Assembly (NCBI RefSeq): GCF_023055435.1
Contig: NW_025964223.1
Coordinates: forward strand, 25,234,001-25,298,000
Direction of reading: 5' to 3'
Length of the DNA stretch: 64,000 nucleotides
From: Haliotis rufescens
Taxonomy: Eukaryota
Positions 1,002-64,000 of this stretch are shown here, piece by piece. Every line of letters starts with the position of its first letter. Within the stretch, counting starts at the first letter, position 1. The translations under genes were made by a program, and so were the position numbers. The notes below the pieces were generated by a model. It was not told where the DNA came from. It ran no database searches and saw only the letters and a program-made list of their open reading frames with translations.

Positions 1002-1175
1002 TTTAACAAACACAAACATGCGAAGCAAAGGAACTAAAAAAATCTACCCAACAGAAACTATACTTCATCAACATGCTAACTCACTTCCTGACTTCTTAAC
1101 TCTTCTATGCATAACGACATGAGATTGTTATGGAAAACATCTTCCTCAATGTTGGTCATGATATTTCAGTGGAGA

Positions 1176-2245
1176 GTAAACATCTACCCACTCAACAACT
1201 CTACACGGCTCACAACAGAACACTGTACCCATGTGGGGAGTGGAAACACCGGGCATTGGAGGGTGCAAGTAAACAGCTACCCACTCAACAACTCTACACG
1301 GCTCACAACAGAACACTGTACCCATGTGGGGAGTGGAAACACCGGGCATTGGAGGGTGCAAGTAAACAGCTACCCACTCAACAACTCTACACGGCTCACA
1401 ACAGAACACTGTACCCATGTGGGGACTGGAAACACCGGGCATTGGAGGGTGCAAGTAAACAGCTACCCACTCAACAACTCTACACGGCTCACAACAGAAC
1501 ACTGTACCCATGTGGGGACTGGAAACCCGGGGCATTGGAGGGTGCAAGTAAACAGCTACCCACTCAACAACTCTACACGGCTCACAACAGAACACTGTAC
1601 CCATGTGGGGAGTGGAAACCCGGGGCATTGGAGGGTGCAAGTAAACAGCTATCCACTCAACAACTCTACACGGCTCACAACAGAACACTGTACCCATGTG
1701 GGGAGTGGAAACCCAGGGCATTGGAGGGTGCAAGTAAACAGCTACCCACTCAACAACTCTACACGGCTCACAACAGAACACTGTACCCATGTGGGGAGTG
1801 GAAACCCCGGGCATTGGAGGGTGCAAGTAAACAGCTACCCACTCAACAACTCTACACGGCTCACAACAGAACACTGTACCCATGTGGGGAGTGGAAACAC
1901 CGGGCATTGGAGGGTGCAAGTAAACAGCTACCCACTCAACAACTCTACACGGCTCACAACAGAACACTGTACCCATGTGGGGAGTGGAAACCCCGGGCAT
2001 TGGAGGGTGCAAGTAAACAGCTACCCACTCAACAACTCTACACGGCTCACAACAGAACACTGTACCCATGTGGGGAGTGGAAACCCAGGGCATTGGAGGG
2101 TGCAAGTAAACAGCTACCCACTCAACAACTCTACACGGCTCACAACAGAACACTGTACCCATGTGGGGAGTGGAAACCCAGGGCATTGGAGGGTGCAAGT
2201 AAACAGCTACCCACTCAACAACTCTACACGGCTCACAACAGAACA
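1176..2245. repeat. 93-bp minisatellite, ~11.5 near-identical copies
   Basis: Unit GTAAACAGCTACCCACTCAACAACTCTACACGGCTCACAACAGAACACTGTACCCATGTGGGGAGTGGAAACMCNGGGCATTGGAGGGTGCAA; starts at 1176, 1269 and onward. Confidence 0.97.
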
Positions 2246-2306
2246 GTTACATAAAATGGACAAAGAAGTCTTGATATCTCACTTTCTATGCAACACATTA
2301 AACCTT

Positions 2307-2988
2307 TTACTGAACCACCTGGTTGACAGAGGAAGATATAGTGGCTGTCTTGACATGGGCTGCAGTGAGTTTACTGAACCACCTGGTTGACAGAGGAGGA
2401 TATAGTGGTTGTCTTGACATGGGCTGCAGTGAGTTTACTGAACCACCTGGTTGACAGAGGAGGATATAGTGGTTGTCTTGACATGGGCTGCAGTGAGTTT
2501 ACTGAACCACCTGGTTGACAGAGGAGGATATAGTGGTTGTCTTGACATGGGCTGCAGTGACTTTACTGAACCACCTGGTTGACAGAGGAGGATATAGTGG
2601 TTGTCTTGACATGGGCTGCAGTGAGTTTACTGAACCACCTGGTTGACAGAGGAGGATATAGTGGTTGTCTTGACATGGGCTGCAGTGACTTTACTGAACC
2701 ACCTGGTTGACAGAGGAGGATATAGTGGTTGTCTTGACATGGGCTGCAGTGACTTTACTGAACCACCTGGTTGACAGAGGAGGATATAGTGGTTGTCTTG
2801 ACATGGGCTGCAGTGAGTTTACTGAACCACCTGGTTGACAGAGGAGGATATAGTGGTTGTCTTGACATGGGCTGCAGTGAGTTTACTGAACCACCTGGTT
2901 GACAGAGGAGGATATAGTGGTTGTCTTGACATGGGCTGTAGTGAGTTTACTAAACCACCTAGTGGACAGAGGAGAAAACAGTGGTTGT
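2307..2988. repeat. 64-bp minisatellite, ~10.6 copies
   Basis: Unit TTACTGAACCACCTGGTTGACAGAGGAGGATATAGTGGTTGTCTTGACATGGGCTGCAGTGAST; starts at 2307, 2371 and 2435. Confidence 0.97.
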
Positions 2989-3093
2989 ACCAATCCCACA
3001 GTGCAGCAACAGGAAACAGCCATGCACCATGCTCCAGGAAACAAGAACAGCGTGCTTAATAGAAAGATTTCTACTTGCATTTGGCACCGGTAC

Positions 3094-6000
3094 CTTCTCA
3101 GGGGTGAGACACTTCATGTTGGTGGTCCTCATCACGTGTTGTAGGAACTCGTGAAGGTCAAGGATGTTGGTGTTGACCGCAACCTTGTTCTCCCACTCAA
3201 ACTCCGCCCACATCTGGCGGAACTCAGAGTCGGTGCAGCTGGCGGGCACGATGTAGTCCATGATGTCAATGTGGATGTCGTTGAGGACTACACAGTTGCG
3301 GTCACTTGCTGCACCTGTCACATCGTACACTGTGGATAGGAAAAGGAAAAAGGTCAGATTAAACCATATATCACTATCAGTTGTGTGATAGTGGATCTAA
3401 TCAAATTTGTCACAGGAAAAATTAACATTCATTTCTTCTTTACATCATGACAATGTTAGATTCATCTGGAAGCCTTGTTGTTTATACAGCTCATAAGGGA
3501 ACTCTCACTTCAATTTGTTGGATGAATCATTAACCATGAACAAAGACAAAAATACATCAGTAAAACAAACACCTAACAAATCACATGTGAACAACAAAAA
3601 GCCTGGAAATATTAGTCTGCACTGAACAACACCAGTAACATATCTCACCAATATTTCCAAAGATGATTCCATTCTCTGTAGAGGCGACCTTGACATTGGC
3701 CTTGATGTTACAGAAGTCGTGAGGAGCCATGGTAAGAGGTTGGGGTTTTTCCACCAGCTTCAAGTCACCTGCAATGTGGGGTAGATATTACAGTCAAGTC
3801 TCGTTAATCCGACATTTGTTAATCCGACACTAATGATGGGAACTGTTTAAATCAGTGCTATTTTGACCCGTTAATCTCTCACTCCCGACTCCGACACACG
3901 TAATTTGCAACAAATTACTGAAATCACTCATATCTTGTTAATCCGACATAGTGATCAGTGTACTCCTCGGTCATCTGCCTGCGAGTACACAGCCCATGTT
4001 TTGAATAAGTCATAGAGTCCGTAACAGTTGTTTTGTGTTAAGCTTTAGAGGTTGCATGATTAGAAAACATATTCTGCTAACAATGTAACATAACAATATG
4101 AATATTTATTTTTTTATTACGTGTTTGTATCATTAGCTATTGTGTAGTTCTCCGATTTTATATCACGAACGTTGATACTACGTAGTTTCGTTAATCCGAC
4201 ATAATCACATTCAACCAACTATGTCAGATTAGCGGGACTTGACTGTACATGGTGGCGGTGAATGTTTCTTCATACTATTGTGGAAGGGAAAACCTAATTA
4301 TAGGTTTCTGTAAAGGTTGTTCTTCCTTGTTCCCCCAGTGATGACTAAATAGATCACCCAGATGTAGCATACCAAAGAGGAAGTGGATGCATCTGACAAT
4401 TTTCATCACCCAGCAGACAGGTGTATTCTGCCTCTATCCTTGAACTACTATTTACACTGCATGTTTCCAGGTGCAGTGGGCGTACAAAGAAAGTGATCAC
4501 TCTATGGCACATCCTACTTAAACACATACACAACCCTGACAAGACAAGTTCAGGAGTTGGCCCCTGGGATTCTGGCGATCTTACCAAGAGTAGCCAGCTC
4601 CAGGGTGAGGTTCTGCAGGGTGTCTGACGTCTGGTTGACAATGAGGACGTCCAAGACAATGTCGTACTGGTTCACGTTCACGTATGCCTCCGCGTACACA
4701 GGGTCGGAGAAGCCAGTCAGCTGAGTCACCTGGAACACAAAAGCTACTGCATTAAACATCACGTATCAGTGTTTCCTTGAATACTAGCTGGACACAAATA
4801 TCAGTATGAACTCTTCATATGATAAGACATAGCATGTACTGATCAGATAAAGCATCAATCGTTGAATGTGATATGCAGCAGTCAGCAAAATATTGTACGG
4901 TGCAAACATCAAGCCTGGACCAACCAAACCAGTGACTGACAGCATGAACAACAATCCATTAGGAAACAAACATTTGTACTTTGTTATCATCTGATCCCCA
5001 TATTATTCAGCATTGTGTCTCTTGCAACATCACAGCCGGTGTGTGTAATGTTAGAGGAAAGCTCATAGTGATGCAGGTCTTGAACCTTTACCTCTGTGGA
5101 GAAACTAGCGGGCACAATCTGGAAATTGAGTCCCAATCATAGGTGCATCGTGATTTGTAGCATGTTAGAAAGCTGTGCCACCTGAGCCTGCCCTACTGAA
5201 GAAGCCTGAAGTGTAACGTCACCTTGTTGAGCTTTGACGCTCCGGCAGGGTCGGCATCCTTCTTGTTGCTCATCCCAAGAGCCTGAGACAGGGTCAGCTC
5301 AAACATGTTCTGAATAATATAAAAATGATTGTTGAAAGAAAACATCATGTATACTAAGATAAAGAAAATACTGGAATCAGTGACAATAGTGGTGCAGGAT
5401 ATCACCAGAGAGAGGTAGTTTAAATATCATCCAAATTCCTAACATCTGGAACATGTCTTACTTACCTCCCCTGTGCCAAGTTCAGCCCTGTTGACGAGCT
5501 GGGTGAAGGAGATGGGGTCATCAGCTTGAACCTTCACCACTTTCTTCTGTGCAGCCTGAAAGATGAATTCCACTAATGACTTCCACAGAATGGCTGGATG
5601 TATAATGTCGAATAAAGTAAATGTTCAATTTGATACTGCCTTTTCTCTGAGGGCGGTTGCCTAGTGGTTAAAGCATTCACTTGTCATGAGGAAGACTCAG
5701 GTAAGATTCCCCACATGGGTACAATGTATGAAGCCCATTTCAGCTCCTACGTCATGATATTGCTCTGAGCCAGTGTTCCTTTGCTGGGATCATTATTTGC
5801 CATTGACATGATCAGTGTTAAATTTTTGTAAATTATTCTCATAATATCTGAAGCACTTGAAGATTCCTCTGTACATATGTTCAAGATATTCAGGATATTT
5901 GTATGTTCATTACCTCAATGTAGTCAGATCAGATCAGCCACATCTATTACCTCTTGCTGTGCCCTCTCCTCTTCAATCTTGGCTGCCAGCATCAGTGACA

Positions 6001-9000: not shown

Positions 9001-12000
9001 TGATGACACATCTGTTGCAATATGGAGGCTACAAGTTTCCTCACCTTCCTCCTTCACTTCTCCAGCAGCCTTCTTGATCTCATCATCAACAATCGGGATC
9101 TACAACACAAACAACAACACAGATAACAAAAGAAGACAGTCATTTCCATGAGGAGGTTACGAGTTGCCTTTAGCAATATTGCAGGTATATCATTGCCTGG
9201 TGGTGGACAGCTGCTACAGAGAAGCAGGACATGTGAGGGCTGTGTGTACATACATCTCCCAGGGCCTGTCTGATGAGGGTCATCACCAGCTGGATGTCCT
9301 CGGAGCTTGTGCAGTATTCTCCCAGGATCCACAGCGCGGCTCGGTGAATCCTGGAAACACACATACATCCTGTTCAGCGACATCTTGTACAGCATTAAAA
9401 AACTAAGAAACCTAAGCACTGAGAAACCTGGTCCTATGACATGAAACAACCTAAATTCTCAAACAGAAGCTGATATATATGATAAAAATTTGCATTATCA
9501 GATAAAAAAGATGACTCAGTTGGAACATATGGTGAGAGTTGTACATTCTGTCGCGACCATACTTTACAATATAAACACGTCACTGACATTTTAGCAAAGT
9601 CAGAACTAAAAAGAAAGGCACATATTAAAATCTGCAACAAATATTGATATATTGCAAAAAACATCAATTGTTACCCCCCTGCAGTGGTATGGTAATAAAA
9701 AATGGGAATAGAAATTTTCTGACTTCAGACCAGGGCCCTGTTCCATAAAACCATCTCAGTGTTAAGACTTGTATCTGCGACACTCTAAGCCAGACTTCCA
9801 TCTAGCCGTGGAAGGGGGCTGAGGGGTGTTAGTTACAGACAGGGACTCACTTCATGGCCTTGATGGTGGGGAACACCTCCAGGAGCTTGCTGATGATAAG
9901 GGTACGCAGCTGCTCGAAGCGCTGGACAGCCTCTCGGACAAACACCAGCACGTCGGCAGCAGCCAGCTCGTTTTGGTCACCCAGGAACTCCATCAGCTGC
10001 AGGAGAGGCACATTACAGTCACAGTGCTCCAACAGGCATTTCTTATCGTTATCTACAGTAAACTACGGTTATGACCAACTCAAAGGGACCACCAATCTTA
10101 GCTCGATATAACTGTAGTTCATGATAAGCATTTTGACCTTTTTACTATTGTTAATTGAGGGTAAAATTGAGGACAAGGTGTTGGTACTTAATCCATCTAA
10201 TCACTTGCCTTCAATATTATTGCCATTTTGAACAACCGTGCGTGACCATGGATGTTTTGATAGGCTGACTGGTGACACATGAGCAGCTCAGAGATTAACA
10301 GTTTGTTTTAAACTGCATTGTCATCGAAAAAACAGTTTGTTATATCTGTCAATTCGTTCATCATAAACATTGTTTACTGCATATTAAATATAGGATGTCA
10401 TAATGCTGTATACAAATCATTTTAATATACGTTTGCTACAGTTTATATTAATGACTTAAACTTGAACTTGTTTTCTAATTTCAATTAAACAATGACCTGA
10501 AATAAGGGAACTCATTTTAGACGAGAGGTTGAAAGTTAACTGATGACAGCTGGATGAACAGAATGGACATTGTGCCTTGCAATAAGGTTACTTTGATTTT
10601 TGTTCCTGATGAGCTCAAAGTGCACATCATAAAGCAGCATTTACTCTATCCTTTAACTCAACTAATTACAAAAGTGAACAGTTGTATAAAGAGCACCACT
10701 GGTATGACTGCATGAGATGATGTTTGACTCACCACTGGTATGACTGCATGAGATGATGTTTGACTCACCACTTATATGACTGCATGAGATGTTTGACTCA
10801 CCCCTGGTATGACTGCATGGGATGATGTTTGACTCACCACTGGTATGACTGCATGATATGTTTGACTCTCCAATGGTATGACTGAATGAGATGATGTTTG
10901 ACTCACCACTGGTATGATGACTGGAGCAACATCGGGGAACTTGACGCTGCACTGATGGAGCGTGCGGACGAGGAGCTGGCGGTACTTCCCCGTGTCCTCA
11001 TGCTCAACATTGTTTGTCTTCACCACTTCCTTCTTCAACACCAACACCATCTGACAGACACAACATACAGCGCGTTACAACCTCTACACCAAGACATCCG
11101 GGTGTGACAGGGCGGGTACAGCAACATCAGTCAAACAGATATTCTGTAGCCTTGTTGTATGAAGTAGATGCCAGTGCAGTTGCATGGCAAGCTCTTGTAC
11201 AAGGTGACTGTAGGACTATGACATGCTATAACATAGGCTTGCAATGACCACAGCACTCCAGTTGCTATGTGCAGGTGGTCAATGAATGTAAGTCATGACA
11301 TGATAATGGTGTTTGAATTGTTTTATGATATTTGTATTCAGTCAGAGGTCAGATTAATGAAAATGCTTAGGATTACCAAAATATGGTGTCTCATCTAGCT
11401 TGTAAGATAAGGGTGCGTTGCAAATCACCAATCACTTGCAAGCTATGTACACCGATTGACCTTACCACGGGGTGACCAACTTTCGGAGGCTTGCAATCTA
11501 CCAATTGCTGGCTGAGGTGTCTTTGATATCAAAGCAAAATGGCGACAGAGTTTGACAGTGGAACAAGAAATTCTTGACTGGATCAACTGTCTGCTCCACA
11601 TCTTCGAAGTAGTCACAAATTCATCAGCTCCTCATCAAGCATCTTCTATTATGTTCTTCATTAGGTCAAGGCAACCAAGCAGTAGTTGCGCCACCATTTT
11701 GGAAGAGTGTGCAAGTGCTTCGAGCTGTTGCAGACCCTAATAAATAATTTGCTTACTCTAAGCCATTCATGGCTTGCAACGTGCCCAACATTCCTTGTGA
11801 ATGTCTCAACATTCCCTTTTGGAACATCCTAGTAACCTTTTCTTTTCATTCTAAATAAAAAGTCTCCTGATTCTAGACTTAACATTAAGTATTGACGTTG
11901 ATGTCAAAATGCAAGATGTGAAAGGTGTTGTCACAGAGTGTGAACCATTCATTCCGCACCACCTCTCACAGTCTATAACCATGAGAAGGAACTGAGGCTG

Positions 12001-33895: not shown

Positions 33896-34111
33896 GAAAT
33901 ATTGTAGAAATATACAATATGGAACAGTCATTGGATGTAATGTGGATTAAATTTTCAGTAAAATGTGCCAACCCACAATCCTATTCCATTTAACAAAAAA
34001 AAACCAAAAAAAACCCGGATCGTATTTAGGCCTATATTAACTATGAATGCTTGGCTGCTTTAAACAGTGTCCCTTTCGTTGTGAATGATAATATGAGAGA
34101 TGCACGAATGT

Positions 34112-34384
34112 TTGTTGGTTGGTTGGTTTGTTGTTTAACGCCGCACTCAGCAATATTCCAGCTATATGACGGCGGTCTGTAAATAATCGAGTCTGGACCA
34201 GACAATCCAGTGATTAATATCATGAGCATCGATCCACGCAATTGGGATCGATGACAAGCATCAACCAAGTCAGCGAGCCTGACCACCCGATCCCGTTAGT
34301 CGCCTTTTACGACAAGCATTGTCGCCTTTTCCGGCAAGCATGGGTTGCTGAAGACCTATTCTACCCCGGAATCTTCACGGGTCC
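34112..34384 (-). mobile_element. SINE-like family D (no tRNA head; GTCGTAARAGGCGACTAA core)
   Basis: TSD GCACGAATGT; starts GACCCGTGAAG; ends GCGGCGTTAAAC followed by an AC-rich tail. Confidence 0.85.
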
Positions 34385-34944
34385 GCACGAATGTAATAAT
34401 GTCTACATATATATGGCATATCCTTCAAACTTAAATAAATATTATGATTAAATTTTGTATCGTAATGCTATATTCAGAGACCGTATCGGCATATGGTCTC
34501 TACTATATTGAATTAAGGCATTCATTAATAAAGGTATTGTGTATTCAAGTTAGCAGAATTAACCAGGGAAAGCCAATATCTACAGACCAAAACACAAAAT
34601 TCGGTGGGAAAGCGAAATTAAACACGCTCCACACACGTTCACTGCACTTTTACTGAAGGTTGTGCTTCCGCCTGTCTCACGACATTAGTTTGTAGTTTGT
34701 TTCTTGCTTAACGCCGCACTCAGCTGTATTCGAGTCTGGACCAGACAATCCAGTGATTTACATCATGATCATCGATCCATACAATAGGGATTTGATGACA
34801 TGCATCAACCAACTCAGCGAGCCTGGCCACCCGAACACGTTAGTCGCCCCCCCCCCCCCCCCCCCCCTTCCTTTTTTTAATTTCGAAAATAATCTTTATT
34901 TCTGTATAAATTATCACCAAAGACAATAAATAGATCTTAATTGT

Positions 34945-36752: not shown

Positions 36753-38291
36753 CTATAAATATTATGAACAATTAAGGATCAACACCATCAACTCTACTAA
36801 GATCATTCTGAGGCGCATAAATTCAGATATTATTTTTGAAAAAGTAACCTTAACATTTTATTCAGAACACCCGCCATAAGAAATATTACAAATATTTCAA
36901 TCTCTAAAGACGTCATGTTGGAAACTATGAAATACAGACTACAGTTCTCATGATCCATGACAGTTCTCATGACAGGAAATAGATACTGAAGGAACCATGC
37001 GTATAACGCTATATGTGATGGAGAGTGGTGCAACCACGCCATCAACAGCACGCGTACATAGCAAGAAGTATGACCGTAGCAGACTATGGTCATAATTGAG
37101 GCGAATACGAAATACCAACCCACAATCAAAGTGAAAAAATTAATCAGGTAGTTTTCACCACTTGGACACTGTAATCTGTTTAAAACAAATAAAGCAAAAA
37201 CAATAATCGATAAATCGAAATCGATCGATCAATCAATTTTAATTTTGAAACTGTGACTTAACACTCTCATGTTAACATTGTTTAAATCTAATATTGCTCT
37301 GAGTATCGGTGTGCATGGCGCTGTTATTCTCCATAGTTAATATCCGCACCCTTTTCTTCAAAATGTGCTTCAGCAGCAAAGGGTTAAACTGACACCTCCT
37401 GCATCATTAGTGACAGGTCTAGAAATTGATTTCCAATGAAGACAAGAGCGTATGCATAAGTTTCCATGTACAATTTTGAATTTTTAAAACTAAAACAAGC
37501 GGATGTAATCCCCCCAAGTACATCGCTGTCGATATTTCAGTGATGTGTCTCTTGATCATCTCTATGATACTCCGCGTTCGTGATGACAAACACATGCTCC
37601 ATCTTCACCCTGTTCTATGCCAACATGGAACTAGCACCAACCATTAGCAAACACATGGCCTTAAAAAGATGATAGTTTAAACTTTCCAAAATCAATTGGT
37701 GCCATGGCAACATCTGATCTTGGAAAAAGAAACAATACTTGAGTAAATACTTTCTCACTTTGACTCATAACAAGTACGTCCTATGTGCGAAGTAGAACAT
37801 GTATAATAAATTATGCACACAGCCAGCACTGTCTGGGTAAACACCCTGTTTCAAGAATCGGGCGTGTTCGTAACGATTTTTAGCCTTTGTACGAACCACT
37901 GAGAGAGTTCGCCCATCAGCCCTAGGCTAAGTTACTATATAGGGCTTGTCAGTCTGTTTGTTTGGTATCCTTGGTTTCAAACCATATTATAATGACGTAC
38001 GGGTGTTTGGAGATACAAACTGTTCTTCGATTGGATGTGATTCTGCAGCATAGGAATTTATATGGTGTTAGCCAAGGTGTACTAAGTACCTACATATCGA
38101 CATCAAAGTCATCTTACTTTGATCGACGACAACTTAAAACATGGAACCTTAAATGTCTACAGACATTATTGGACATTGTTGGTGTCAGTATTTGTACTAA
38201 TCTGGTTCTTGAAACTTCTACAAGGATAACTGGGACAATCTGCGATTGTGAGTTTTATTTGTGCCAGAAGGTGTTAATCGAGATTGTCAAA

Positions 38292-39599
38292 ATGCGCACA
38301 CTCGTCTTTCTCGGTTTCTTTGTGATGCAGTCTGTCAACGCTGCCTACGTTGACGACCTTCGACGTTTGCATAACGAAGTGATTGACGTCAACAACCCCT
38401 GGCTGCGCCCCTCTCTGAACAGCAACCTCCCCACGAAGGTGTCCATCATTTTCTTCTCGCTGTCCTCCATCTCCCTGGATGACATCACGCAGACGATGTC
38501 TTCATCCGGGTATCTTGGTGTCACCTGGCGGGATGAGTTCCTGAACTGGCCAGCGAGTAATTACAGCGGTATAAGCAGTCTATATCCAAACCCAAACAAA
38601 ATATGGCGTCCGACACTGGCCGTGAAAAATTCCATCGAGAAGGCGACGCCATTCCGGGCCGACTTCATGTACACAACGGTCACAGCTAACGGGGAGGTGC
38701 TGTGGTACCCCGGGGACGTGTTTCAGACAGTTTGTGAAATGGACGTTTCAAAGTTCCCATTTGATACTCATGTTTGTAACATAGACTTTACTCTTTGGCG
38801 TTCAACACCAACGGAGGTAGACCTCCTCCTCTTAAGTCGTATGAAATTTAATATGGACGAATTCGTCGAGAATAATCTTTGGCAACTTGTTGATCAGAAT
38901 GCCGAACGAATCAACAATACAAATTCCTACCCTTTCGTGAGACTGACCTTCACCTTGAGACGGCAGCCTCGCACTTACATCACAAACGTCGTGGCCCCCA
39001 TCTTTGCAATCGCCCTCCTCAACGTCTTCATCTTCCTCATCCCTTCTCAGAGCGGGGAGAAGATCCAGTTTGGCATCCTCGTCCTCCTGGCTTACGCCAT
39101 CTTCATGAGCTTCTCCGCGGAGACGCTGCCTCAAAGCTGGAACACGACCTCCACCCTCGGTAACTACTTTCTTGTCCTGGAGGTGTTCTGCCTCATCTAC
39201 ATCCTCCTCAGCATCCTCTCCGCCACCATATACGCCCGCGAGGACTTCCACCACGGCATCTCACCAACCCTGGCGCGTGTGGTGGAGAACATGGAGAAGA
39301 TCTTCCTCTGTAGATGCTGTAAGAAGAGACCCTCTAGCTCATCCACCATTGAAGTCTCCCCCATGGATGAGCCGTGTTCACATAACGGTACAGAGATGGA
39401 GTTCGGGACCAAGAGACCGCTTCCAGTCAGACGTATTCCGGAGAGGATTGAAATGAACTGGAAGAGGGTGAGTAGAGCATTCGACATGCTCTTCTTCTGG
39501 CTGTTCCTGCTCATCGTCATCTGCAGCATGATTGGTGTCATGACCTACATCACACCAATGATCAACTTCGATAAGGTCGAATCCGTTTTTAAGAACTGA
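38292..39599 (+). CDS. Intronless Cys-loop ligand-gated ion channel subunit, nAChR-like, non-alpha, 435 aa
   Basis: Signal peptide MRTLVFLGFFVMQSVNA; WRDEFLNW and IWRPTL motifs; Cys loop CEMDVSKFPFDTHVC (C-x13-C); four hydrophobic segments; SGEK before M2; WKRVSRAFD before M4; no vicinal CC in loop C. Confidence 0.93.
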   Translation: MRTLVFLGFFVMQSVNAAYVDDLRRLHNEVIDVNNPWLRPSLNSNLPTKVSIIFFSLSSISLDDITQTMSSSGYLGVTWRDEFLNWPASNYSGISSLYPNPNKIWRPTLAVKNSIEKATPFRADFMYTTVTANGEVLWYPGDVFQTVCEMDVSKFPFDTHVCNIDFTLWRSTPTEVDLLLLSRMKFNMDEFVENNLWQLVDQNAERINNTNSYPFVRLTFTLRRQPRTYITNVVAPIFAIALLNVFIFLIPSQSGEKIQFGILVLLAYAIFMSFSAETLPQSWNTTSTLGNYFLVLEVFCLIYILLSILSATIYAREDFHHGISPTLARVVENMEKIFLCRCCKKRPSSSSTIEVSPMDEPCSHNGTEMEFGTKRPLPVRRIPERIEMNWKRVSRAFDMLFFWLFLLIVICSMIGVMTYITPMINFDKVESVFKN

Positions 39600-41413: not shown

Positions 41414-41660
41414 GACCCGTGAAGATCCGGGGTAGAATATATATAGGTTTAGTAACCCATGCTTGCCGTGAGAGGCGACTAACGAGATCGGGTGATCATG
41501 CTCGCTGACTTGGTTGATGCATGTCATCGTATCCCAATTGCGTGGATCGATACTCATGATGTCAATCACTGGATTGTCTGGTCCAGACTCGATTATTTAC
41601 AGACCGCCGTCACATAGCTGTAATATTTCTGGGCGCGGCGTTAAACAACAACAAACAAAC
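41414..41660 (+). mobile_element. SINE-like family D copy
   Basis: Collinear with the reverse complement of 59401-59665; single core hairpin. Confidence 0.85.
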
Positions 41661-44106: not shown

Positions 44107-53247
<9,141 letters not shown>

Positions 53248-59400: not shown

Positions 59401-59665
59401 CTGGTTGGTTTGTTGTTTAACGCCGCACTCAGCAATATTCCAGCTATATGACGGCGGTCTGTAAATAATCGAGTCTGGACCAGACAATCCAGTGATTGAC
59501 ATCATGAGCATCGATCCACCCAATTGGGATCGATGACATGCATCAACCAAGTCAGCGAGCCTGACCACCCGATCCCGTTAGTCGCCTTTTACGACAAGCA
59601 TAGTCACCTTTTACGGCAAGCATGGGTTGCTGAAGACCTATTCTACCCCGGAATCTTCACGGGTC
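59401..59665 (-). mobile_element. SINE-like family D, full-length copy
   Basis: TSD TTTCCCATTAAG at 59389-59400 and 59666-59677. Other copies at ~15100-15310 (-), 41414-41660, 43648-43845, 46358-46625, 54558-54790 and 63725-63965 (+). Confidence 0.88.
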
Positions 59666-62029: not shown

Positions 62030-63535
62030 TACTCAACAACAAAAGTTCCCGTGACATCAATATGTTACTGTAATTTTCAAACAAGTAAAGTTTGGTTTTC
62101 AATATTGTAGTACATGTATGGAATCAAGTCACAAAAACGCAACTGCTACAGAAAAGCATGCATTCCATTCAAAACATTTATGCAAGCCCCAGGCATTTCA
62201 CTGCCTAACAATGGGTATAAAAACATGTGAGTTAACGGGATTCCATATGCATTGTTTAGCATCGTGATGACAACAACCACTCAGAAAAACAACAAAATTA
62301 CGCAATTATTCAACATTACGAAATGCCACGCCTGTCCGAAAATGAGCGTCTGCGAGCCATTGGTATGCTTGAAGCAGGATCGAGTCAACTTGATGTTGTA
62401 AGACAATTTAACGTCCATAGAAACACCATTTGGTGCTTATGGCAACGTTGGCAACAGGCGCATACAGTCAGAGACCATCCTCGGAGTGGCAGGCCACGCG
62501 TAACCAATAATCGACAAGACAACTGGATTCGAACAACACACCTACGAAATCGATTCCAGCCAGAAACAGAGACTGCAAGAAGCATCCCTGGCCTTCGACG
62601 AATATCTTCACAACCCTTACGTCGCCGCCTCAGATGTGCAGGGATTGTCGCCAGAAGACCCGCCAGACGTCCCATTTTGACAGGAAACCACCGTCAAGCA
62701 CGCCTACAGTGGTGCAGACAGCGTCTACGCTGGACGGCCATGCATTGGGGACAAGTTCTATTCACTGACGAGTCTCGTTTTCACCTCAGCCACAGCGATG
62801 GACGGATTCGAGTGTACCGACGTCGAGGTGAACGTTACATAAATCATTGTGTCATGGAAGAAGATCGGTTCGGGGGCGGCAGCGTTATGGTATTGGGTGG
62901 GGTTACAGCAAGACAGAGGACCCGTTTGATAGTGGTAGAGGGAAATCTCAAAGGACAGCGCTACCGCGACGAGATCATCGTCCCTGTTGTTCTACCGCCT
63001 TTGCGTCGTCATGGCCCAGGCATTACCTTTCAACATGACAACGCCCGGCCTCATATTGCTCGACTTGTTCAGGATTCACTTCAACAAAACAACGTCAATG
63101 TCATCCCCTGGCCGGATCGCTCCCCTGATCTCTCACCAATCGAGCACATGTGGGATGAGATGGATCGGCGCCTTCGACGTCAGCCACGTGTTCCACAGAC
63201 ACTCCAGGAACTTCGAAACATGCTCCAGCAGATATGGACATATATCCCACAGGACTTTGTGCGACGCCTGGTCCATTCCACGACACGAAGATGTGTTGCT
63301 TGCATCGCAACCAGAGGGGGAAACACACGCTATTGATTTGTAAATTGACATTTTGGCATGTTCATGTTTGTTTATGAAATCACGCATTTTCTGAAGTCCG
63401 TATGGCAAATTAAACCATTTGAACACTTACAGGAGTCTTTTATCTGTTGCAAACCGAAATTGTTTCAGATTTGGTAAAAAACATATCTGTGCATTAAATC
63501 TTATTCAATGTCACAGGAACTTTTGTTGTTCAGTA
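62030..63535 (+). mobile_element. Full-length Tc1-family DNA transposon (~1.5 kb) in an SLC22 intron
   Basis: 28-bp TIRs TACTCAACAACAAAAGTTCCCGTGACAT / ATGTCACAGGAACTTTTGTTGTTCAGTA (2 mismatches), flanked by TA on both sides and enclosing a transposase ORF. Confidence 0.95.
62323..63336 (+). CDS. Tc1 transposase, DD34E, 337 aa
   Basis: N-terminal HTH with RSGRPRVT linker; FTDESRF, FQHDNARPH and SPDLSPIEHMW; 34 residues between the second D and E. Confidence 0.93.
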   Translation: MPRLSENERLRAIGMLEAGSSQLDVVRQFNVHRNTIWCLWQRWQQAHTVRDHPRSGRPRVTNNRQDNWIRTTHLRNRFQPETETARSIPGLRRISSQPLRRRLRCAGIVARRPARRPILTGNHRQARLQWCRQRLRWTAMHWGQVLFTDESRFHLSHSDGRIRVYRRRGERYINHCVMEEDRFGGGSVMVLGGVTARQRTRLIVVEGNLKGQRYRDEIIVPVVLPPLRRHGPGITFQHDNARPHIARLVQDSLQQNNVNVIPWPDRSPDLSPIEHMWDEMDRRLRRQPRVPQTLQELRNMLQQIWTYIPQDFVRRLVHSTTRRCVACIATRGGNTRY

Positions 63536-63724: not shown

Positions 63725-63965
63725 GACCCGCGAAGGATCCGAGTTAGAAAAGGTCATCAGCAACCCATGCTTGTCGTAAAAGGCGACTAACGGGATCGGG
63801 TGGTCAGGTTCACTGACTTGGTTGATGCATGTCATCGTATACAATTGCGTGGATGGATGCTGTTGATGTCAATCACTGGATTGTCTGGTCCAGACGCGAT
63901 TTTTTTAGACCGCCGTCATATAGCTGGAATATTGCTGAGCGCGGCGTTAAACAACAAACAGACAA
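63725..63965 (+). mobile_element. SINE-like family D copy
   Basis: Starts GACCCGCGAAG; AGGTTCAG on both flanks. Confidence 0.82.
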
Positions 63966-64000
63966 ATAAAACAAATTCAGACAAAAACAGGTTCAGGTTA

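Follow-up and report, generated by a model that had tools for sequence, protein, structure and literature searches.

A predicted, covarying pseudoknot at the head of Haliotis SINEs, a Nimb-type LINE and viral RNAs as a candidate exonuclease-resistant RNA

How does a retroposon that carries neither a recognisable promoter nor a recognisable ribozyme gain a precise 5′ end? The question is raised by a SINE family, here called family D, in a 64,000-nucleotide stretch of the Haliotis rufescens genome (the window). The element is non-coding, about 265 nt long and flanked on either side by target-site duplications. Its full copy at 34112..34384 (minus strand), a probable Haliotis-type LP-SINE, lies between 10-nt duplications (5′ at 34385..34394 and 3′ at 34102..34111, minus strand) and is 97% identical to the copy at 59402-59665. 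The first-pass annotation had named five copies that begin at a common (G)ACCCG (34383, 41414, 46358, 59665 and 63725), and all five were recovered with that start. Three of them had been placed directly against a target-site repeat; the copies at 59402..59665 (minus strand, 12-nt duplication) and 63725..63988 (plus strand, 8-nt duplication, one hairpin only, at the window end) are indeed flush, and the one at 34383 is so with one extra G. The copy at 41414..41660 (plus strand) has, as had been cautioned, 40 extra nt between duplication and head, enclosed by its 11-nt duplication, and the copy at 46358..46625 (plus strand) has a doubled hairpin and no detectable target-site duplication. The extra 40 nt are single-copy in the genome, with no source locus there that would show a 5′ transduction. 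A covariance model located 11 heads within the window, six beyond those already named, and the hairpin motif, with up to two mismatches allowed, occurred 10 times in the window against 0.08 expected.

The start of the element is precise genome-wide, as had been claimed. A tight head pattern gave 22,136 exact matches in the 1.33-Gb genome and none in a reversed control. GA precedes CCCG in 56 of 77 distinct heads from fetched loci, and 33 of these 77 are bounded by a target-site duplication of at least 9 nt. Among these 33 family D copies, chosen for an intact head so that 5′-truncated copies were excluded by design, 27 start 0-3 nt before CCCG and 18 exactly 2 nt before it. No tRNA or 5S head lies upstream that could account for this: the 27 bounded copies begin at the head itself, ARAGORN found no tRNA gene in the window and Rfam gave no match, so family D falls outside the tRNA- and 5S-derived SINE class. 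The same start position is seen in other SINE families, and across families the distance from head to core varies from about 45 to 188 nt. The element start tracks stem 1 of the fold described below, not the conserved core.

From comparison of sequences, the head is predicted to fold as a covarying H-type pseudoknot followed by a conserved hairpin. In the 34112..34384 copy (all minus strand) the 5′ strand of stem 1 (34378..34381), with the element start 2 nt upstream, pairs with the 3′ strand at 34365..34368 (34381-34378 with 34368-34365). The loop of stem 1 (34369..34377) is also the 5′ strand of stem 2, an assignment that comes from covariation; 34377-34370 pair with the 3′ strand at 34349..34356, with 8/8 pairs formed in this copy. 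Loop 3 (34357..34364) lies between, with a conserved AGAATA at its end, and tolerates long insertions in other families. The first, divergent copy of a duplicated hairpin module follows (34321..34335), then the conserved 4-bp hairpin with a 7-nt loop and a TAA (34296..34313, hairpin proper 34313-34299), the conservation of which is partly due to selection by the search pattern. Stem 1, stem 2 and the hairpin are therefore present as originally proposed. The proposed CCC/GGG closing stem was upheld as to pairing (3′ strand 34290..34294, partner 34342-34344) but amounts to only about 3 bp in family D. Across families this stem varies in its complementary letters and in length, between 2 and 11 bp, and it has 2 bp in three viral records. 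The 22-nt hairpin module is duplicated, as reported, yet not merely in some copies: the doubled form is the majority among 30 unbiased copies. Finally, the 3′ tail (34114..34187, minus strand) aligns as a homologue of an intact Nimb-type LINE's tail.

Covariation in stem 2 carries the case for the pseudoknot. Of 27 chosen representatives, 26 yielded a hairpin for stem 1 under a rule that took no account of stem 2; poor parses were retained. With stem 2 held in a fixed register, 152 of 208 cells were paired across the 26, against 140 in the best of 100,000 permutations; the representatives were the cleanest per family, hand-picked and related, and these shuffle figures are not probabilities. 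Shifted registers gave 37-53% pairing. In a 17-row alignment of non-viral sequences five stem-2 pairs had changed on both sides (20 cells), a level reached in 0 of 500 shuffles. G-U pairs are frequent in the stems and are compatible with the SINE strand only. Stem 1 is near-invariant and the hairpin is invariant through selection, and neither was counted as covariation. The only compensatory change seen in the hairpin is in a LINE subfamily copy (L230), where it accompanies one in stem 2. Together the compensatory changes in stem 2 across representatives bear out the claim of a conserved pseudoknot.

Long loops fit the same fold. Loop 3 always ends in AGAAT and accepts insertions, which in some SINE families are stretches of simple sequence 60-140 nt long. 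Of 29 loci that at first appeared headless, 16 proved to have the head upstream of the core by 83-188 nt, and the 11 long-loop loci that could be scored kept 5-7 of the 8 stem-2 pairs. The 5′ end had been called highly structured, and this stands by covariation but not by folding energy: nested folding of single window copies left no signal (z 0.55 and 0.39). Automatic parsing of pseudoknots under loose settings told true from swapped halves only weakly (median 9.9 against 8.1, with 13% of swaps at or above the true median) and was replaced by the fixed-register test of stem 2.

Family D is most likely the published LP ("LINE promoter") SINE of Haliotis type, to judge by head, length and layout. 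Matetovici 2016 described LP-SINEs, two 255-nt Haliotis families among them, with a head of about 70 nt (PMC4758252, consulted in part), which is common to the LINEs Nimb-17_LMi, I-3_DR and RTE-9_CPB; the SINEs were named Hdi_LP, Hmi_LP, Oco_LP, Sgl_LP and Lsa_2. Family D likewise has a LINE-derived head of about 70 nt, no tRNA head, flanking target-site duplications and a short tandem-repeat tail, at about 265 nt against the 255 published. The scallop LP head (Fig. S2 of that paper) shares the core motif and, as read by eye, the layout of the pseudoknot, though its complementary letters differ. The SINE family and its shared LINE head are thus already published. The accessible part of the 2016 paper does not deal with RNA structure, viral copies, the partner LINE or the arrangement of ribozyme plus head. 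The head was presumed to be a promoter, by analogy with the trypanosomatid promoter-plus-ribozyme Pr77, and that part of the paper calls for experiments and leaves the presumption untested.

The same genome contains an intact Nimb/I-type LINE (L194) with the same head, an ORF1 of 453 codons and an ORF2 of 1229 codons encoding endonuclease, reverse transcriptase and RNase H. Its tail and the SINE tail align with a score of 53, against a maximum of 37.5 in 1000 shuffles, and this homology makes a LINE of this Nimb type the likely mobiliser of the SINE. The target-site duplication of this LINE adjoins not the head but a module of about 59 nt placed directly before it (9114-9172 of the locus; G000:C2, about 22565610-22565670, minus strand). 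The module matches the HDV-like family RF02682 (E 0.0023, below gathering) and a descriptor search, and has the HDV-like layout: a 7-bp P1 from G1 with a G-U wobble, P2, a 3-bp P3, L3 and a C-x-A-A joiner. G1 is flush with the junction. All 30 best copies, and likewise all 30 unbiased copies (taken in genome order with a head-only pattern), start at the module's first G, and none of 30 starts at the head. The last 7 nt of the module are exact in 838 of 877 exact head matches, and the three sampled exceptions were point variants in which the module is still present. The canonical core persists in only 1 of 30 copies of the HDV-bearing LINE, whose stems still show compensatory changes. Upstream of other families an HDV-like module was found at 0 of 348 cores, many of which are copies of the same families. 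As side observations, the 5′ UTR of L194 about 75-260 nt past the head is conserved with a Nimb-like LINE in a bivalve-symbiont scaffold (L226) and has hairpin-like segments. The ribozyme-headed copies are clustered (G000:C1, C12, C14 and C24, many tens of kb apart or less), which suggests a preferred target region.

A 17-nt core pattern matched 545 genome stretches with different 3′ neighbours, 122 metagenome stretches and nine viral stretches. The matches fall into many families with unrelated bodies, and the cross-lineage homologues that the first-pass annotation had advised collecting do exist, as viral, metagenome and other LINE and SINE copies. Six matches in prokaryote genomes (L221-L226) are symbiont or metagenome-assembled records. 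Bacterial membership was rejected on the eukaryote-like flanks of L222, L224, L225 and L226, and such records are likely contaminated public assemblies; L226 has Nimb-type ORF1 and ORF2, and L222 and L225 contain simple repeats. Satellite-like tandem arrays of the head, with periods of about 48, 82 and 22 nt, were also seen (L070, L071, L072 and L290-L292).

The fold lies in the sense strand, 3′ of the last ORF, in five distinct RNA viruses supported by Pfam (RdRP_4, RdRP_3 and capsid families) and in one unclassified viral contig; the motif takes this position after the last long ORF in six of the first nine viral matches and in one later match. The five comprise a toti-like RdRp record (L034), three records with tombus-like RdRps and capsids (L036, L038 and L320) and a near-identical pair with a tetravirus-type capsid (L032 and L037). 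The unclassified contig (L031) has no Pfam match and carries two divergent copies of the fold in tandem. The motif lies 25-221 nt past the last stop, a spacing on which a role in stop-codon readthrough was rejected, and 14-119 nt from the record end. In every viral copy the complementary letters of stem 2 are its own, and no SINE body lies downstream. Built from 15 non-viral sequences and with the search motif absent, a model covering only the pseudoknot half found five viral copies at E 7e-6 to 4e-3 (L034, L038, both copies in L031, and L033) and missed L032, L037 and L036. It gave no match in 13 chance-match loci and two phage-like chance matches, and no useful E-value in 20 further loci that included the weak L320. 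One phage-like sequence (L035 and L039) was rejected as a chance match, and looser viral patterns, drawn up for hairpin-stem covariation, were discarded as mostly chance matches lacking the pseudoknot. A further copy (L033, about 2950-3030) was noted in a DNA virus record of 212 kb that has an NAD-dependent ligase; it sits between two genes, with a long ORF following after about 140 nt. Since the fold is kept with compensatory changes in viruses that have no DNA stage, it must work as RNA.

Our best reading, which we hold with no more than even confidence, is that the LINE-derived SINE head is a putative block to 5′-3′ exonucleases of the Xrn1/Xrn2 type, an xrRNA of an undescribed class by which read-through transcripts of the host would be trimmed back to the first base of the element. 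A SINE copy would be transcribed as part of a longer Pol II transcript of the host; once the RNA is decapped or the intron released, an exonuclease would digest the flank and stall at the pseudoknot, so that the surviving RNA would begin at the SINE's first base. The tail of this RNA would then be bound by Nimb ORF2 protein and the element reinserted. The viral counterpart of this block would shield a short 3′ fragment, of about 80-185 nt to the record end. A ribozyme-generated 5′-OH end is not known to be a substrate for Xrn1. HDV-like cleavage would therefore leave an end closed to the enzyme, and copies would start at the ribozyme as the head core relaxed. A somewhat more tentative extension is that this xrRNA class is common to animal LINEs and SINEs and to unrelated RNA viruses, and that it forms a third route to an exact retroposon 5′ end besides promoters and ribozymes, interchangeable with an HDV-like ribozyme or placed behind one. 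Both the step from fold to resistance and the step from resistance to the SINE 5′ end are ones we infer.

The exonuclease block would cover the starts fixed to stem 1, the function at the RNA level, the viral 3′ position (once in tandem) and the silence of the head behind a ribozyme. The reading draws on known xrRNAs, which, in the parts of the literature consulted, are pseudoknots that lie where viral 3′ UTRs begin and halt Xrn1 at the first stem's 5′ base (PMC11702639), one class of which, coremin, consists of a small pseudoknot and a required downstream hairpin (PMC10321173). The head shares the pseudoknot, as judged by covariation. It has no sequence motif in common with them and differs in having an 8-9-nt loop and an AGAATA linker instead of the YGAD loop and CUAC spacer of coremin or the L2B and AGY of class 3, the class of Tombusviridae and Solemoviridae (PMC11702639). 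By-eye comparison with the descriptions available, and an empty Rfam scan, likewise place it outside class 3, coremin and classes 1 and 2 with their three-way junction. Furthermore, viral xrRNAs differ from the head in that it stands at the 5′ end of cellular retroposons and its resistance is only predicted.

Several observations count against an exonuclease block. No sign was seen of a ring encircling the head's 5′ end, and floppy loop-3 insertions of 60-140 nt are hard to reconcile with a compact brace. According to the part of PMC10321173 consulted, Xrn1 is not stalled by plain H-type frameshift pseudoknots. The absence of head starts among 30 copies of the HDV-bearing LINE also tells against the block, which might be expected to yield a few, and the viral fragment predicted is short. 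Finally, most retroposon heads, including those of families D, F1, F2 and F3, have a +1 purine, which viral copies lack, and such a start resembles polymerase start sites.

This purine leads to the strongest competing account, which we consider unlikely though credible: the published LP reading of the head as an internal DNA promoter starting at the first base, combined with an RNA fold that binds a host factor and is kept by viruses for translation or stability. The position of the head at the 5′ end, the purine in the four families and the intergenic position of the fold in a large DNA virus are all consistent with it, as is the Pr77 analogy proposed in the accessible text of Matetovici 2016 (PMC4758252). 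However, the start-to-core distance is not fixed, the junction of family F1 has no extra G, covariation is useless to a DNA promoter and the HDV-bearing LINE starts elsewhere than at the head. A cutter or promoter acting at the head's 5′ edge would lose the upstream module from new copies; its retention therefore argues both against a promoter with a fixed start there and against an efficiently self-cutting head. An RNA role of the kind that this account adds would also suit the viral position, as cap-independent translation elements are typically located just after the viral stop.

The lead idea of the first-pass annotation, by which the head represents a new class of self-cleaving ribozyme and cuts at its own 5′ edge, fares less well and appears improbable. 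The precise 5′ end, a small core conserved at sequence level and the relaxation of that core where an HDV-like module has been gained, as if the head were then redundant, would all suit a ribozyme, as would the fact that HDV-like and twister ribozymes do the same job in other LINEs. The LINE copies speak against it: an intact LINE with the canonical core starts 59 nt upstream of the head, at the HDV-like G1, and the module is kept ahead of the head in 30/30 copies by start position and in 838/877 by sequence. In addition, the head occupies the sense strand at the 3′ ends of linear RNA-virus genomes, where a cut would remove the replication end, and it has a duplicated hairpin module and a freely expanding loop 3. 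Rfam scans by E-value were empty over the head in the window, viral and metagenome loci (in particular, no head match in the window at gathering, in the single copy at E 5, in nine viral loci or in seven other loci), in agreement with the original finding that HDV, hammerhead, twister and pistol do not fit; hatchet was not found either. The head likewise does not match the twister layout in Table 1 of PMC8501958 or the cores of pistol and hammerhead. The HDV-like class, with P1 from G+1 closing P3/L3, P1.1 and a nested double pseudoknot, does not describe the head, and the same Rfam search that matches the separate upstream module leaves the head unmatched.

About as improbable is a head that serves solely as a cap-independent translation or ribosome-binding element, with the 5′ end set otherwise, for example by ORF2 binding in second-strand synthesis. 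This would suit the retention of the head immediately after an HDV-like ribozyme, which yields an uncapped product, and its placement past the last stop in viruses. By analogy with Alu, a SINE would also be helped by ribosome binding in capturing ORF2. This account nevertheless leaves unexplained that the first base pair of stem 1 is where several non-coding SINE families begin, and a block to reverse transcriptase would cut at the 3′ side of the fold, not the 5′ side. Passive inheritance, by which old LINE 5′ sequence without RNA function was taken up by viral assemblies or recombination, can point to public assemblies that mix such repeats and to prokaryote-labelled matches that look like eukaryotic contamination, but is scarcely credible against the covariation and against viral copies with their own stem-2 letters, no SINE body and, in one record, two divergent copies.

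Among the nearest known systems are the 5′ self-cleaving ribozymes of non-LTR elements, for which Ruminski 2011 is reportedly a source. The HDV-like ribozymes of R2, RTE and L1Tc and the twister variants of Perere-3 likewise define the 5′ end of a promoter-poor retroposon with the duplication flush (PMC3774820, PMC5786205 and PMC8501958, each consulted in part). The fold of the head is different from theirs, and here the HDV-like module is a separate unit ahead of it. The bipartite non-autonomous LINE derivatives of Kojima 2018 (PMC5786205) also join a LINE 5′ part to a LINE 3′ tail without ORFs, but those in the text consulted derive from RTE, Ingi, Vingi and R2, whereas family D has a Nimb/I-type tail and a middle unrelated to that LINE.

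In the literature searched, taken outside bioRxiv supplements and subscription papers, no account was found of the fold, its viral copies, the partner LINE or the arrangement of ribozyme plus head. LP-SINE terms led to the 2016 paper alone, apart from unrelated mentions, and no paper combined Nimb with HDV-like. The core motif string was likewise absent from that literature, which included part of the supplements of a viral structured-RNA survey (PMC10690425), a source that could contain it. The fold is kept by LINEs of two clades, many SINE families and unrelated RNA viruses. If Xrn1 stalls at the head, it would be the first xrRNA with a role in a cellular retroposon, as far as this literature goes, and a new scaffold protecting RNA 5′ ends. 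If Xrn1 does not stall, the head would still be an unlisted conserved RNA motif that moves between viruses and host mobile elements.

Small-RNA mapping from three runs of a species under the same label placed 9, 113 and 13 reads on the SINE, almost none of them at the head. The few reads are about 30 nt long and piRNA-like, with 5′ ends at 34180 (plus strand) and 34222 (minus strand) in the SINE body. Elsewhere in the window, a single-exon ORF of about 430-550 codons (37926-39599, plus strand) resembles, by eye, a ligand-gated ion channel subunit of the nicotinic receptor-like kind. An ORF of 358 codons (62260-63336, plus strand) similarly resembles an intact Tc1/mariner transposase, and two neighbouring minisatellites with periods of 93 and 64 nt occupy 1082-3117.
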